Assembly (NCBI GenBank): GCA_023228195.1
Contig: JALOBR010000001.1
Coordinates: 1 to 42,665 of the forward strand
Direction of reading: 5' to 3'
Length of the DNA stretch: 42,665 bases
DNA from: Candidatus Omnitrophota bacterium
GTDB taxonomy: Bacteria > Omnitrophota > Gorgyraeia > Duberdicusellales > 4484-171
Part shown: in pieces, positions 1,830-4,375 of the stretch
Position numbering within the stretch: position 1 is the first letter of the stretch
How the letters are laid out: every line of letters starts with the position of its first letter
The notes under the pieces: generated by a model
What the model was told of the DNA's origin: nothing
Database searches by the model: none
Seen by the model: only the letters and a program-made list of their open reading frames with translations
Position numbers and translations under genes: made by a program

Positions 1830-2768
1830 ATGGTTAAATTAAAAATAATGGTAGTTGACGACGATCCTGATATTTTGGAACTTCTTAAGGCAACTCTGGA
1901 AGAAGAATATGAAGTGACCAGTGCCGCGCTTGGCAATGAAGCTATAGAAAAGTTGAAGAAAGAAGTGCCTGACCTTTTGGTTTTAGATTATGTGCTTCCC
2001 GACCTTCATGGCCCGGAAATATGTAAGATATTAAGAAAAGACCCGCTGCTTGTACATCTGCCAGTGCTTATGCTTACCGGTAAAGGAGAAATTGAAGATA
2101 AAGTAAAAGGGCTTGAGTCCGGCGCTGATGATTATATGGTAAAACCTTTTTCACCGCAGGAGCTTACCGCGAGAGTACGAATGCTTATAAGGCGTTCGAA
2201 TATAAACCTAGACGCGAACCCCCTGACACGGCTTCCCGGAAATGTTTCAATAAGCCGGGAACTGGATGAAAAGATAAAAAGCAAAGAAAAGTTTGCCGCG
2301 CTTTATATCGACTTGGATAATTTTAAAGCGGTAAATGACTACTATGGCTTTGAAAGGGGTGACGAAGTAATAAAAGAAACTGCCCGCATTATAATCAGTG
2401 CCATTTCAGAAAAAGGCACAACCCGTGATTTTATAGGCCATATCGGCGGAGATGATTTCTTTGTAATAACCTCTCCGGAAAAAGGCGAAGAAATAGCAAA
2501 AAAAATAATAAGTGATTTCGACAAGGTATCTCCTAAATTTTTCGACGAAACCGACAGGATAAAAGGTTTTATCGAAACAAAAGGGCGCGACAACGAAATA
2601 CATAAATTCGGATTTATTACCATTTCGGTAGGCATAATAACCAATCTTTACAGGGAATTTACGCATACCGCGCAAATAAGCTCGCTTGGAGCGGAAGTTA
2701 AAGGGTTTGCAAAAAAATTCGCTCAAAGCAAGTATATTTTCGATAAGAGGACGGAACAGAAATACTAA
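1830..2768 (+). CDS. Response regulator: REC domain fused to a variant GGDEF-fold domain (GGDDF)
   Basis: REC: VVDDDPD, acceptor Asp in LLVLDYVLPD, MLTGKG, KPF. Output domain: NPLTRLPGN, YIDLDNFKAVNDYYGFERGD, GHIGGDDFF. Confidence 0.85.
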   Translation: MVKLKIMVVDDDPDILELLKATLEEEYEVTSAALGNEAIEKLKKEVPDLLVLDYVLPDLHGPEICKILRKDPLLVHLPVLMLTGKGEIEDKVKGLESGADDYMVKPFSPQELTARVRMLIRRSNINLDANPLTRLPGNVSISRELDEKIKSKEKFAALYIDLDNFKAVNDYYGFERGDEVIKETARIIISAISEKGTTRDFIGHIGGDDFFVITSPEKGEEIAKKIISDFDKVSPKFFDETDRIKGFIETKGRDNEIHKFGFITISVGIITNLYREFTHTAQISSLGAEVKGFAKKFAQSKYIFDKRTEQKY

Positions 2769-2804
2769 AAACTTCTGTTAGGAAAATTTAAGATATAAAT
2801 CTAG

Positions 2805-2833
2805 TTGTCAGAGAAATGGTTGTGTGGTATATA
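2805..2833 (+). promoter_or_regulatory. Sigma70-like promoter upstream of the tRNA-derived repeats and tRNA-Leu
   Basis: TTGTCA (2805-2810), 17-nt spacer, TATATA (2828-2833). The -10 is preceded by TGG, giving an extended -10 TGn. Confidence 0.5.
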
Positions 2834-2883
2834 TATTATTCATCTAGATAGAAGCAATAAGTTCTTAAACAATCCAAGGGTAT

Positions 2884-3134
2884 GTCGCACGAGTGGTGTC
2901 AACAGTCTTTACCGAAAGATCGAGTTTCTTTAGCGCTGTTGCCACCATAAGCTAACAAATTAAATAAATCCCCTTAGAAGCTAAAAGCTCTTGACCGACC
3001 CGAAAACTTTGTAGCGCGAGCGGTGTAACAAGTCTTCGTCGAAGACGAAGTTTCTTCACACTTGTTCCACCTAAGCTACAAACTAAAGAAAGCTCTTTTA
3101 GAAGAAAAAGGTTTTTGACCAAACTGAAAAGTTA
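2884..3134 (+). repeat. Two tandem structured units (periods 127 and 124 nt) derived from the adjacent tRNA-Leu gene
   Basis: Units start GTCGCACGAGTGGTG (2884) and GTAGCGCGAGCGGTG (3011), compared with the tRNA 5' end GCGCGAGTGGTG (3138). Their 3' parts are CCACCATAAGCTA and CCACCTAAGCTAC, compared with the tRNA CCCACCTCGCGCA. Each unit ends with a TTGACC-containing spacer. Confidence 0.8.
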
Positions 3135-3137
3135 CTA

Positions 3138-3221
3138 GCGCGAGTGGTGAAATGGCATACACTTACGTTTGAGGGGCGTATGGCGAAAGCCGTGTGGGTT
3201 CAAGTCCCACCTCGCGCACCA
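3138..3221 (+). tRNA. tRNA-Leu (anticodon GAG), class II with a long variable arm and encoded CCA
   Basis: Hand-folded cloverleaf. Acceptor GCGCGAG/CTCGCGC. 3-bp D stem GTG/CAC with GG in the loop. Anticodon stem TACGT/GCGTA with loop TTGAGGG (U33, GAG, G37). Variable arm GGC-GAAA-GCC. T arm GTGGG-TTCAAGT-CCCAC. Discriminator A plus CCA. Confidence 0.9.
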
Positions 3222-3580
3222 TTTATTTTACTTCAAAAAATCATTGCTCTTTAGATTGTCTTACTTGAACAATAAAAATACTTGGATGTATGATAAAGAA
3301 ACCCCGCCTGCGGCGGAGCATACATACAAGTCCTCCTCCTTCGCCCTTTAAGCTTCGGCGGACAGGCACCTCGCGCATTGCTTTATTTTGATAAAGGAAG
3401 AAACAACAATGGGTTCTCCGCCACTTTAGTTTTTTTATATGGGCGGATCCGCCTTCGGCGGAAAATCCCCTCTCTCGCATATTTTTTTATCAGATTACAT
3501 ATGCCTAAAAATAGTTTAGTATTTAGCAAAACTCTCTATCCGCTCTGCGCTAATAAAATGGCTAACTAGTTTTTCTCGAG

Positions 3581-3770
3581 CTATTGCAAATTTACTCTTT
3601 CCAAAAGTTTTAGCTTATAAGTAAGGCGAGTAAGCTGGCGGGGTAAATCTACATCTTTAAAAAATAATATCTTGCGACAAATCAAACTTAATCGGCATAA
3701 AATTCAGTATTGCGCGTATCCCGCATTCATATAAACTATCTGCGATTTCTTTAATAGGAAAAGTCTTTTC
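3581..3770 (-). pseudogene. Remnant of a Rex-like redox-sensing repressor C-terminus (frameshifted and truncated)
   Basis: The minus strand translates as ...FPIKEIADSLYECGIRAILNFMPIKFDLSQDIIF*. After a frame change it reads FKDVDLPRQLTRLTYKLKLL. The GI(K/R)xILNFxP...VDL...L pattern matches the Rex C-terminus. No N-terminal part is present. Confidence 0.4.
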
Positions 3771-3945
3771 TTAATTGATGACGGATTATTTTCAAGAAAC
3801 TCGCAAACTGACAGCTTGATACTACCTTTTTATTTTATTCAAGAAAATAAATAAATGCGCGCGGACAATAAGACAAACGTATAATGATTTCTTAGGGAAT
3901 TTTTTTAAACATTTGAGAAATAGTTACACGGGTTAATGCCTTCGC

Positions 3946-4316
3946 TTAGCAGATTCTTGGTAAGTTAAACGAATGTGGAAAATCGAGAATCCTTTCGCCC
4001 CCCCCGGAGACCGTTTCAAGCACAATACCTTTTATATTATCGTCAATCTCGCCTATTATCGATGCGGATTTGGATATTTTCTTTAAAGAATTCAAAACTT
4101 TCTTTGAAATTTTATCCGGCGCGGCAAGAACAGCTCTTCCTTCGCAAGCAAGATAATACGGGTTTATCCCTAATATTTCACAGTCGACCCTAACGTCGCG
4201 GCATCTGCTAACTGCGCAATAACCGGATTAGAAAGTTTTTTCAGGAAAACTTCTCTGATTAAATTGTAACTTGCTTTTGCGCCTTCGCCGCGTTTTAAGG
4301 TTATTATCTCTTGCAT
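3946..4316 (-). pseudogene. hypE: hypE remnant (hydrogenase maturation protein): N-terminal about 48 aa, a stop and frameshift, then the C-terminal about 75 aa; the central about 200 aa are missing
   Basis: Minus strand: MQEIITLKRGEGAKASYNLIREVF...DAATLGSTVKY*. In another frame: GINPYYLACEGRAVLAAP...IIGEIDD...VLETVSGGGERILDF...LPRIC*. A terminal PRIC is the HypE signature. Confidence 0.55.
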
Positions 4317-4375
4317 ATTGTTTGCTTAGTCTGAGGTTAAAGTTGGGTAAAATAAAAACTTAACCTTACCTTAGC

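Follow-up and report, generated by a model that had tools for sequence, protein, structure and literature searches.

Hairpin modules linked to tRNA gene ends form a lineage-specific family in one group of uncultured Omnitrophota

Why should the first bases of a tRNA-Leu(GAG) gene be found three times in a row, when a tRNA follows only the last of them? In the window analyzed here, a stretch of 42,665 nucleotides from a Candidatus Omnitrophota contig, the 12-nt box GC(A/G)CGAG(T/C)GGTG occurs at positions 2887, 3014 and 3138 with spacings of 127 and 124 nt (repeat family D3; Table 1), which are the three units and periods reported in the first-pass annotation of this DNA. That annotation also proposed that the last unit alone is a tRNA, and ARAGORN as well as the Rfam tRNA model RF00005 call only this one of the three boxes, RF00005 giving no match on units 1 and 2 even at E up to 10. 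The repetition extends beyond the boxes: about 45 nt on the 5' side of each are repeated as well (families D1/D2 and alignment), the D2 direct-repeat copies at 2849, 2975 and 3099 being 70-74% alike, and the D1 repeat that defines spacer 1 spanning 81 nt and being 70% identical to 3072-3152. The units are too diverged for Tandem Repeats Finder, which reported nothing over 2000-4000; BLASTN of the units against their own genome gave no further copy, and the others were found by the covariance model alone.

Table 1. Repeated modules and associated features around the tRNA-Leu(GAG) gene
Feature	Positions	Strand	Basis or content
Candidate promoter at the head of the array	2805-2833	+	TTGTCA, 17 nt, TG-g-TATATA; read from sequence
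Partial copy of the tRNA upstream flank (F), before unit 1	2849-2886	+	D2 family
Unit 1, 5'-type module	2887-2956	+	Model matches 69.4 bits (R1) and 54.9 bits (R2); fold
Unit 1, E	2887-2898	+	Copy of tRNA positions 1-12, one mismatch
Unit 1, P1	2895-2898 with 2943-2946	+	
Unit 1, T.C mismatch	2899 / 2942	+	
Unit 1, P2	2900-2905 with 2936-2941	+	
Unit 1, inner hairpin P3	2906-2919	+	
Unit 1, T-rich bulge	2920-2935	+	
Unit 1, tail	2947-2956	+	
Spacer 1, copy of the tRNA leader (F)	2957-3013	+	Contains TTAGAAG..TTGACC..GAAAA
Unit 2, 5'-type module	3014-3080	+	Model match 70 bits (R2); fold z = -3.95
Unit 2, E	3014-3025	+	
Unit 2, P1	3022-3025 with 3068-3071	+	
Unit 2, T.C mismatch	3026 / 3067	+	
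Unit 2, P2	3027-3033 with 3060-3066	+	
Unit 2, P3	3034-3050	+	CTTCGTC GAA GACGAAG
Unit 2, bulge	3051-3059	+	TTTCTTCAC
Unit 2, tail	3072-3080	+	
Spacer 2, actual tRNA leader	3081-3137	+	Repeat families and alignment
tRNA-Leu(GAG), CCA end encoded	3138-3221	+	ARAGORN; RF00005 48.2 bits
Mirror-image 3'-type module	3280-3377	-	R2 match 3272-3338, 41.6 bits, E 1.2e-8
X of the 3'-type module	3280-3331	-	Read on the - strand
Split copy of the tRNA 3' end, first part	3327-3333		CAAGTCC
GC-rich insert in the split copy	3334-3366		33 nt
Split copy of the tRNA 3' end, second part	3367-3377		CACCTCGCGCA

Units 1 and 2 had been described as sharing one bulged-hairpin pairing, including a T-C mismatch, in different sequences, and both folds are as claimed: an inner hairpin is enclosed by GGTG-T-CAACAG.../...CTGTTG-C-CACC in unit 1 and by GGTG-T-AACAAG.../...CTTGTT-C-CACC in unit 2. 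Compared with chance, the fold is much better in unit 2 (Table 1) and weaker in unit 1 (z = -1.84). We call the single bulged hairpin of each unit X. It consists, in this order, of P1 (4 bp), the T.C mismatch, P2 (6-7 bp), the GC-rich P3 and, directly after P3, a bulge of the TTTCTT type; the 5' strand of P1 is formed by the last 4 nt of the tRNA copy, and P3, with a mean free energy of -7.9 kcal/mol, is most commonly closed by a C-GNA-G loop. In 93 distinct copies of X, 92.3% of the cells are standard pairs versus 33-55% when the partners are slid, and 421 cells are doubly changed versus 50-88 in the slid controls, with double changes seen at 18 of the 19 pairs. This agrees with the earlier argument that the pairing is under selection and not simply decaying, and supports the view that units 1 and 2 are real folded modules selected for pairing. 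P1 covaries with the identity of the tRNA (GGTG/CACC, GCGG/CCGC, GGAG/CTCC, GTTG/CAAC); the mismatch, loop and bulge are all conserved in the family, and conservation within X is strongest in its single-stranded motifs (loop GAA, bulge UUUCUU).

The first-pass annotation regarded each unit as a tRNA with a replaced interior, in which the 5' end and the T-stem/acceptor 3' side, CCACC(A)TAAGCTA, had been kept. The 5' 12 nt are indeed kept, but only positions 1-12 derive from the tRNA, and the 3' sequence is not a T-stem/acceptor remnant, CCACC pairing instead with GGTG. CCACC follows its pairing partner and not the tRNA, because in genome G001, where the box reads GGCGG and the tRNA T-stem CCCCT, the corresponding CCGC tracks the box.

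The bulge has the consensus T-T-T-(C/T)-T-(T/C), with at least 4 T among the first 8 nt in 81-97% of the units, and its T tract is polar (5.3 T per 8 nt in the direction of X versus 3.5 in the other direction). The ratio of G.U to A.C on the strand of X is 21:10 in units upstream of tRNA genes (5'-type) and 11:1 in those downstream (3'-type), and may favour X's own strand; as seven of the eleven G.U pairs of the 3'-type units occur at one pair at the base of P3, this strand evidence is suggestive.

A covariance-model search for homologs, which the first-pass annotation had recommended, was done with two models, R1, built from ten 5'-type Leu(GAG) units only, and the broader R2. Among the 74 genomes of the same Omnitrophota family, R1 has matches in 32 and R2 in 52; R2 also matches in 3 of 9 and 0 of 2 genomes of two sister families and in 3 of 151 genomes of a phylum-wide sample, and phage and plasmid records gave no match except to the tRNA itself. 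The number of copies per genome ranges from 2 to 14. The genome studied here has five significant copies, every one beside a tRNA gene, and all matches with a tRNA in the fetched locus likewise adjoin a tRNA gene. X is dispensable, since it is missing from 22 of the 74 family genomes, some of them near complete. These distributions give good support to X being a lineage-specific family of one uncultured Omnitrophota group, linked to tRNA ends. The family is apparently undescribed so far; literature searches on Omnitrophota tRNA repeats found nothing relevant.

The modules occur in two mirror-image forms, each composed of E (a copy of the neighbouring tRNA end), X on a fixed strand, and a copy of the tRNA's own flank. 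The 5'-type lies upstream, on the tRNA strand, after a copy of the tRNA 5' end, and belongs nearly always to tRNA-Leu; the 3'-type follows the gene, is read on the opposite strand and adjoins a copy of the tRNA 3' end. Most tRNAs bear the downstream form only, and tRNA-Leu genes are often bracketed by both. This is also the case here, as a 3'-type module absent from the first-pass annotation follows the gene at 3280-3377. Its X reads in the tRNA sense ACTTG-G-ATGTATG-ATAAAGAAA-[CCCCGCC TGC GGCGGAG]-CATACAT-A-CAAGT; the exact 11-nt repeat of the tRNA 3' end in this module is repeat family D6, and in the ortholog from G071 the copy of the tRNA 3' end is uninterrupted (19/19 nt).

The rule of orientation, by which X either precedes the tRNA and shares its strand or follows it on the opposite one, holds for 75 of the 79 matches with a tRNA in the locus; three of the four exceptions sit inside 5'-type arrays, and the remaining one belongs, as a 3'-type unit, to a tRNA-Arg(TCG) nearby. 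R1 detects 3'-type units solely on the strand antisense to the tRNA. Read along X, the modules thus aim at the tRNA gene end from both sides, the nearest unit lying 50-62 nt from it in both forms, and the junctions look alike (GAGTGGTG, GGGAGTTG and GAGAGTTG, each joined to T). In the tRNA sense, upstream and downstream forms are complementary in their single-stranded motifs, for example GTTTCTTTA at 2924-2932 versus TAAAGAAAC at 3294-3302. The E copies match their own tRNA, most of them without mismatch; in the 5'-type they are 12-13 nt long for Leu and 22 nt for Ala(CGC), and in the 3'-type 13-21 nt, the 3'-type copy beginning in the T-loop. Several units, both proximal and distal, have a tRNA copy whose first 2-3 nt are decayed (ACACGAG, AAGCGAG, ACGCGAG). 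The inward-pointing rule excludes the simplest explanations by a sense RNA and leaves as options polar transcription control around tRNA genes or a tRNA-specific, structure-guided element.

The tRNA flank is duplicated along with the tRNA end, units inside one array are often identical (loci L043, L040 and L069), and copy number and order of units vary between close relatives: the orthologous Leu(GAG) locus has one unit in G001, two in G000 and G005, three in G002 and G006, and four in G071. From these patterns we infer that the arrays originate by local duplication, unequal crossing-over or gene conversion; acting between the repeated flank-plus-end segments, such events would let the arrays grow, shrink and stay identical to their tRNA.

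The candidate promoter in front of unit 1 is conserved before the orthologous arrays of G002, G005 and G071, and is absent from the promoter-scan list because the last base of its -10 element is not T. In other relatives a clearer, sigma-70-like promoter likewise precedes the array (TTGACA-17-TATATT in L040, 11/12; TTGACA-18-TAAAAT in L043; TTTACA-16-TATAGT in L045, 10/12). A separate promoter in each spacer, built on the TTGACC block, was rejected: this block is situated 17 nt before the tRNA +1 with no -10 element, and the scans of the present locus and of L040, L043 and L045 gave no same-strand site in the inner spacers. Because they lie between the sole recognisable promoter and the tRNA, the upstream units would form a repetitive and structured leader on the transcript of pre-tRNA-Leu, to be removed during maturation.

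Our preferred reading, which we hold tentatively and rate slightly below an even chance, is that X is a polar transcription-attenuating or insulating hairpin carried by locally duplicated leader and trailer modules. P3 and its U-rich tract could act as a weak, one-directional intrinsic terminator or pause site, damping transcription that enters the tRNA gene from upstream or from downstream, to a degree that the number of copies would tune; transcription of the leader, termination and processing of the modules are steps that we infer from the arrangement of the sequence. A terminator scan lists P3 with its tail in unit 2, in the 3' unit at 3280-3377 and, among relatives, in units of L040 and L043. 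Unit 1, with a P3 of just 5 bp, and the L045 units are not listed. Terminator-like sites elsewhere in the window are not enriched by a crude motif scan (20 found versus 20.3 expected).

Several points speak against a terminator. Between the sole promoter and an indispensable single-copy tRNA it would be costly, which demands that it leak or be regulated; for termination P3 and the U tract suffice, so that the strong covariation of P1 and P2 stays unexplained, as does the copy of the tRNA end on each X. Of 19 genes adjoining 3'-type modules, 17 run in the direction of the tRNA, so there is no convergent gene to stop, which rules out the terminator of a convergent neighbour, and as terminators the 3'-type modules could act only on stray antisense transcription. 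We also considered a single-stranded DNA hairpin on the lagging-strand template or on the displaced non-template strand, which is disfavoured, as both orientations share a locus.

A close rival, which we consider possible but on the whole rather unlikely, is that X is a selfish or formerly mobile hairpin element targeting tRNA gene ends, its hairpin being kept for mobility and not for a benefit to the host. Its joining rule would be a 4-nt pairing of the hairpin foot (P1b) with G-K-Y-G in the tRNA gene, that is, with positions 9-12 of tRNA-Leu or with the reverse complement of the T-loop in other tRNAs, in a logic akin to guide-target recognition of IS200/IS605 and REP/RAYT or to a miniature cis-mobilised integrative element. 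The 4-nt helix of foot and tRNA would set the joining point at the 5' end of tRNA-Leu and at the 3' end of a dozen others, and X, once attached, would multiply in tandem. With such a retargetable X the mirrored orientation is natural, as a tRNA gene read inward from either end offers the same acceptor sequence, and so is the likeness of the junctions in the direction of X. X is homologous across loci of different tRNAs and must therefore have spread between loci; it is patchy inside one bacterial family, with whole genera lacking it, and its arrays shift in copy number and unit order among close relatives. Copies of tRNA ends at integrase attachment sites begin in the T-loop, as those of the 3'-type do, and C-GNA-G, the commonest loop of X, is the motif of very stable DNA mini-hairpins. 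The genome moreover has further families of hairpin repeats and further tRNA fragments that a hairpin interrupts.

A possible enzyme for such an element was sought among Y1 transposases (IS200/RAYT-type, PF01797), whose genes are present in 57 of the 74 family genomes. However, they occur as often with X (40 of 52 genomes) as without it (17 of 22), they were not found in the X-carrying genomes G000, G002, G004 and G005, and the best IS200-like genes have no X beside them; no enzyme is linked to X, and the Y1/HUH link was dropped for want of an association, subject to the incompleteness of the assemblies. Mobility is also opposed by the structure of the repeats. The repeated segment carries 20-70 nt of locus-specific flank, unlike the target duplications of transposases and unlike an incoming element, and after a simple insertion X would be followed by the remainder of the tRNA, an arrangement never observed. 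No X was found elsewhere than at tRNA genes, and none in phage or plasmid records; across many genera the modules stay with one and the same tRNA at a constant distance, with compensatory changes in their stems, for example at tRNA-Gly(GCC). If the reading were nevertheless true, a retargetable X would represent a new class of miniature, structure-guided, tRNA-specific genetic element. In this sharper form, with a retargetable X reading tRNAs from either end, we would put it forward as an unlikely conjecture; host-encoded, inward-pointing polar terminators that insulate tRNA genes are equally compatible with the data.

Quite improbable, in our judgement, is a role in trans, in which the modules, once excised from the pre-tRNA, would persist as stable small RNAs, as RtT and RrA/B/F of E. 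coli do, and could serve, for example, as sponges for proteins, or, in a variant, in which the pyrimidine-rich upstream bulge would pair with the purine-rich downstream bulge. The layout resembles that of the E. coli tRNA-linked repeats, among which some undergo processing and are bound by Hfq and CsrA (PMC8144298); conservation of X peaks in its single-stranded loop and bulge motifs, and tRNA-Leu is often bracketed by forms complementary in these motifs. On the other hand, most tRNAs have the downstream form only, whose conserved features are antisense to the tRNA, so that a sense RNA would carry the complement of the motifs; a simple function of a sense-strand RNA is hard to reconcile with this mirrored form. 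No Rfam family matches, RtT included. A long duplex between leader and trailer at this locus was rejected, as the two hairpins have different P2 and P3 sequences and are complementary in the consensus bulge and loop only.

The first-pass annotation itself had suggested a regulatory leader with two alternative pairings, or decoys that mimic a tRNA for RNase P or RNase Z, a reading that is largely refuted by the comparative data and has in our view very little chance of being right. The units do sit in a tRNA leader, and in both units of the window the middle strand (AAAGA or GAAGA) can pair upstream or downstream; this alternative pairing is, however, not conserved, the mean longest helix being 2.84 bp versus 2.71 bp with shuffled bulges and only 3 of 93 units reaching 5 bp. 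A decoy is contradicted by the lack of an acceptor stem and T-arm for RNase P or RNase Z, by the tRNA model having no match on the units and by the decay of the first bases of the tRNA copy in several of them, and neither version explains the mirrored downstream form. Neutral decay of partial tRNA duplicates with no selection on structure, for which one could cite that tandem partial duplicates of tRNA genes do occur and that in unit 1 the inner hairpin is weak and the tRNA copy mismatched at one position, is already refuted by the 92% pairing and the 421 doubly changed cells in 93 copies from many genera and by the conserved mismatch, loop and bulge.

Among known systems, the nearest described things to the X modules are the tRNA-linked repeats (TLRs) of E. 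coli, which include the tyrT-distal 178-bp repeats/RtT RNA (Rfam RF00391) and rrA/rrB/rrF. Known since 1978 without an accepted function, they occur as one to five units per locus in tRNA or rRNA operons and finish with a perfect 18-19-bp repeat of the adjacent gene's 3' end (PMC8144298). The 3'-type X modules share this layout, with their tRNA 3'-end copies of the lengths given above, and the TLR type of copy is matched in kind by the module at 3280-3377 (7 + 11 nt, split) and by its 3'-type relatives only, as TLRs are downstream and copy the 3' end whereas in units 1 and 2, which precede the gene, it is the 5' end that is copied. The X modules differ also in having one conserved hairpin common to many tRNAs and mirrored between the two gene ends, and in an outer helix that uses bases of the tRNA copy. 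RF00391 gave no match in 2300-3700 at E up to 10, and the units have no match to riboswitch, T-box or other Rfam families at the same threshold. To our knowledge, upstream units copying the tRNA 5' end have not been described for TLRs.

The attL/attR sites of tyrosine integrases (T-loop class) are alike in the direct repeat of the tRNA 3' end from the T-loop past the gene end and in the possibility of tandem accretion. In contrast, the "insert" of X modules is about 55-90 nt long without an integrase, the repeat includes locus-specific flank, and a mirror form at the 5' end exists; at the present locus a 3' repeat starting in the T-loop is present and encloses about 90 nt of DNA, and units 1 and 2 are 5' repeats. 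With REP/BIME/REPIN sequences and their RAYTs, and with IS200/IS605, X shares the imperfect hairpin with its conserved mismatch, a motif of 4 nt at the 5' foot, and compensatory stem changes. REP sequences, however, are present in hundreds of copies and X in 2-14 per genome, only at tRNA gene ends; X has no association with Y1 genes, and its foot motif is paired and changes with the tRNA. In the genome studied here, the five copies are all beside tRNAs and PF01797 has no match. Integron attC sites were also rejected: the outer stem of X, G-K-Y-G ... C-R-M-C by eye in the alignment, varies with the tRNA, and where GTT/AAC are present in X their order is opposite to that in attC (RYYYAAC ... GTTRRRY).

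Intrinsic terminators and attenuators resemble X in the GC-rich hairpin of 6-8 bp followed immediately by a T-rich tract and in the position of the upstream form between promoter and gene. The hairpin of X differs in being nested in two more covarying helices, its tract is TTTCTT without a run of T, and it has no conserved antiterminator pairing. For annotation, it is of practical relevance that the modules are easily taken for tRNA pseudogenes or integration scars. In comparison with the E. coli repeats the X family is better defined, by one hairpin with strong covariation, a strict rule of orientation and distance, a helix tailored to the tRNA, and both upstream and downstream forms, and it makes the vague class of tRNA-end repeats testable. 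Either outcome, polar control or a structure-guided element, would be new for the biology of bacterial tRNA genes and would bear on how the supply of tRNAs is set in very small genomes.

The only tRNA gene of the window, tRNA-Leu(GAG), was identified by ARAGORN and scores 48.2 bits with the Rfam tRNA model. Its first 12 nt and about 45 nt of its upstream flank are repeated together in two upstream units, the 5'-end copies being spaced 124 and 127 nt (see the table). Neither unit is called as a tRNA by ARAGORN or matches any Rfam model at E up to 10. Thus ARAGORN, Rfam and a repeat search agree with the first-pass annotation, which described tandem units with periods of 127 and 124 nt, only the last being a tRNA. 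The hairpin that it proposed for units 1 and 2 was also obtained in our folds of both; unit 2 folds far better than its shuffles (z = -3.95), and unit 1 shows a modest gain only (z = -1.84).

Features of the window, of related loci and of the repeated module
Feature	Position	Description
Candidate promoter	2805-2833	TTGTCA-17-TGgTATATA; conserved in relatives, below the scan's criteria
Unit 1	2887-2956	begins with GCACGAGTGGTG
Unit 2	3014-3080	begins with GCGCGAGCGGTG
Leader stretch	3078-3089	ACAAACTAAAGA, 12 nt
tRNA-Leu(GAG)	3138-3221	begins with GCGCGAGTGGTG
Trailer stretch	3248-3259	TCTTTAGATTGT, 92% complementary to the leader stretch
Downstream module	3280-3377	minus strand; in the tRNA sense ACTTG-G-ATGTATG-ATAAAGAAA-[CCCCGCC TGC GGCGGAG]-CATACAT-A-CAAGT
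GC-rich insert	3334-3366	TCCTCCTTCGCCCTTTAAGCTTCGGCGGACAGG, 33 nt
CTTCGGCGGA/CTGCGGCGGA motifs	3308-3317, 3353-3362, ~3440-3465	related, recurring
Intergenic region	3378-4375	downstream module to next minus-strand gene; no credible gene
Candidate promoter, L040		TTGACA-17-TATATT, 11/12
Candidate promoter, L043		TTGACA-18-TAAAAT, 11/12
Candidate promoter, L045		TTTACA-16-TATAGT, 10/12
Divergent promoters, L040	1258-1315	share a palindromic -35 region, TTGTCAATTGACAA
tRNA-Gln, contig C93	2444-2518	intact; a 35-nt copy of its 5' half lies 377 nt upstream, with other hairpins after it; 11-nt copy of own 3' end 199 nt downstream
tRNA-end copy		in 5'-type units, first 12 nt of the tRNA
X: P1		4 bp; final 4 nt of the end copy serve as 5' strand (GGTG with CACC)
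X: mismatch		T.C after P1, in at least 66 of 93 distinct units
X: P2		6-7 bp, A-rich 5' strand
X: P3		stacked directly on P2; GC-rich hairpin, 6-8 bp, commonest loop C-GAA-G
X: bulge		9-16 nt directly after P3, consensus T-T-T-(C/T)-T-(T/C)
X: 3' part		3' strands of P2, then P1, then a short semi-conserved tail
Flank copy		copy of the tRNA leader

The same design, a tRNA-end copy, a bulged hairpin (X) and a copy of the tRNA's own flank, is constant among relatives, which are labelled Candidatus Omnitrophota MAGs. BLASTN searches of the window's genome with units 1 and 2 yielded no additional copies. Ten Leu(GAG) units from five genomes, all upstream and on the tRNA's strand (5'-type), served to build a covariance model (R1), which had matches in 32 of the 74 genomes of the family, usually as tandem arrays with a period of about 125 nt beside tRNA genes. 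Of these matches, 52 were used for a second model (R2), which identified X in 52 of the 74 genomes, in 3/9 and 0/2 genomes of two sister families of the order, and in three of 151 genomes evenly sampled from the phylum, the window's own being one of the three.

In 93 distinct copies of X, standard pairs occupy 92.3% of cells vs 33-55% in controls with partners shifted by 1-3 columns; 421 cells are doubly changed vs 50-88 in the controls, and double changes occur at 18 of 19 pairs. The alignment was fitted to a covariance model and is therefore biased toward structure, but the controls are surpassed by a very wide margin, and folding sequences one at a time leads to the same design, so that selection for pairing in X is not in doubt. 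This supports the earlier suggestion of selection on RNA structure rather than a decaying duplicate.

P1 varies with the tRNA (GGTG/CACC, GCGG/CCGC, GGAG/CTCC, GTTG/CAAC, CTTG/CAAG, GGG/CCC). In the close relative G001, GCGAGAGTGGCG is found both in the tRNA and in the unit; the 3' strand of the unit is CCGC, whereas the T-stem of the tRNA is CCCCT. Since the 3' strand tracks P1 and not the T-stem, the CCACC of the window units is the P1 partner and not, as first proposed, a T-stem remnant.

Seventy-nine model matches had a tRNA within the sequence retrieved around them; 40 of these are 5'-type and 35 are 3'-type (downstream, on the strand opposite to the tRNA). Of the other four, three are inner members of 5'-type arrays and one belongs, as a 3'-type unit, to a tRNA-Arg(TCG) nearby. 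In both forms the nearest unit lies 50-62 nt from the tRNA. R1 detects 3'-type units despite its 5'-type seed, and solely on the strand antisense to the tRNA; thus X has an intrinsic direction and is always aimed at the tRNA gene. The flank preceding X copies the gene end that X faces, mostly with zero mismatches: tRNA positions 1-12/13 at tRNA-Leu and 1-22 at tRNA-Ala(CGC) in 5'-type units, and in 3'-type units the final 13-21 nt (T-loop or T-stem to 3' end), in reverse complement. The former belong to tRNA-Leu in 41 of 43 cases, with all five anticodons represented; the latter occur at Phe, Gly, Leu, Ala, Met, Lys, Tyr, Thr, Arg and Ser tRNAs.

The window also contains a 3'-type module overlooked in the first-pass annotation (R2, 41.6 bits), so that tRNA-Leu(GAG) is bracketed by inward-pointing copies of X, two upstream and one downstream, as are Leu(GAG), Leu(CAA) and Leu(TAG) loci of relatives. 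The tRNA 3'-end copy next to this X is split into CAAGTCC and CACCTCGCGCA by the GC-rich insert; in the relative G071 it is unbroken (19/19 nt). Related motifs recur in and around the insert, which points to insertion of a second small hairpin repeat family. Two close relatives, G006 and G001, have different DNA immediately past tRNA-Leu(GAG), that side of the tRNA thus being a variable spot. The complementary leader and trailer stretches may form a helix enclosing the tRNA; this complementarity is kept only roughly in G002.

Elsewhere in the window's genome, 3' modules of the X type are found after Leu(TAG), Gly(GCC) and Tyr(GTA), and fragments of tRNA-Gln, Pro(CGG), Val(TAC) and Ala(TGC), the last three on contigs C100, C110 and C50, have hairpins of other types beside them. 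The tRNA-Gln lies between copies of both its own ends and looks like a whole gene nested within a split one. At tRNA-Pro(CGG) a 70-nt direct repeat comprises the 3' end and trailer; at tRNA-Ala(TGC) a GC palindrome of 20 nt, CCTGCCTGCCGGCAGGCAGG, interrupts the 5' copy behind position 21. Open frames for Y1_Tnp (PF01797; 180-440 aa) occur in 57 of the 74 family genomes, up to 16 per genome, which fits the many hairpin repeat families noted there.

The arrays probably arose by local tandem duplication, unequal crossing-over and gene conversion. The repeated segment comprises the tRNA end and 20-70 nt of locus-specific leader or trailer (at locus L040 it begins near the predicted transcription start), units within one array are often identical (L040, L043, L069), orthologous Leu(GAG) arrays contain one (G001), two (the window's genome, G005), three (G002, G006) or four (G071) units, and the order of unit types differs between the window's genome and G002. 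Repeated arrival of a foreign element does not fit these observations. Local duplication does not account for how each locus acquired its first unit, or for how homologous X reached loci of different tRNAs.

In the window and at L040, L043 and L045, a sigma-70-like promoter is predicted immediately upstream of the first 5' unit, and the inner spacers have no same-strand promoter site; transcription would thus run through the units, making them a long repetitive leader of pre-tRNA-Leu. At L040 (genome G076), the divergent promoters of tRNA-Ala(GGC) and the tRNA-Leu(CAA) array share a -35 region. P3 (mean free energy -7.9 kcal/mol) and the adjoining T-rich tract were scored as terminator-like in unit 2, in the downstream module and in units of relatives. 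In 3'-type units the tract has 5.3 T per 8 nt in the direction of X vs 3.5 in the opposite one. The ratio of G.U to A.C pairs on the strand of X, 21:10 in 5'-type and 11:1 in 3'-type units, is only suggestive, since seven of the eleven 3'-type G.U pairs fall at one pair. Our best guess from these sequence features is that X may work as a polar hairpin facing the tRNA gene on either side and causing weak termination or pausing; upstream it would attenuate transcription entering the gene and downstream it would block antisense transcription. However, this leaves P1, P2 and the tRNA copy unaccounted for, a terminator ahead of a single-copy tRNA would have to be leaky, the rest of the window has no excess of terminator-like sites, and the gene beyond 3' modules has the direction of the tRNA in 17 of 19 cases, leaving no convergent gene to stop.

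Alternatively, X could be a selfish hairpin element targeting tRNA genes. The mirror arrangement would follow, because both ends of a tRNA gene, when read inward, offer the same acceptor sequence. This reading would also account for the patchy distribution, for the resemblance among junctions (..GAGTKG|T) and for C-GNA-G loops of the DNA type. Yet no enzyme was found: Y1 transposase genes are equally frequent in genomes with X (40/52) and without it (17/22) and searches of four genomes of the genus that carry X found none, and no X lies beside IS200-like genes. In phage and plasmid records the tRNA alone matches, and the repeated locus-specific flank is at odds with transposition. X modules may also be processed into small RNAs, for which the E. 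coli tRNA-linked repeats provide a precedent (PMC8144298); conservation in X is highest in the single-stranded motifs, and those of upstream and downstream modules are complementary in the tRNA sense, but most tRNAs have one form only. Comparative data reject neutral decay, given the pairing in 93 copies, as well as the initially proposed decoys and pairing switch with a downstream TCTTT, which is not conserved (longest alternative helix 2.84 bp vs 2.71 bp with shuffled bulges; means of 93 units).

In summary, the identity of the X modules is on firm ground, while their mode of action is not. Literature searches found no description of the upstream form, the shared mirrored hairpin or an outer helix tailored to the tRNA. 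The downstream form has a layout like that of the E. coli tRNA-linked repeats and would act like them, but has no match to RF00391. The X modules are a real, conserved and apparently previously undescribed variant of tRNA-linked repeats.
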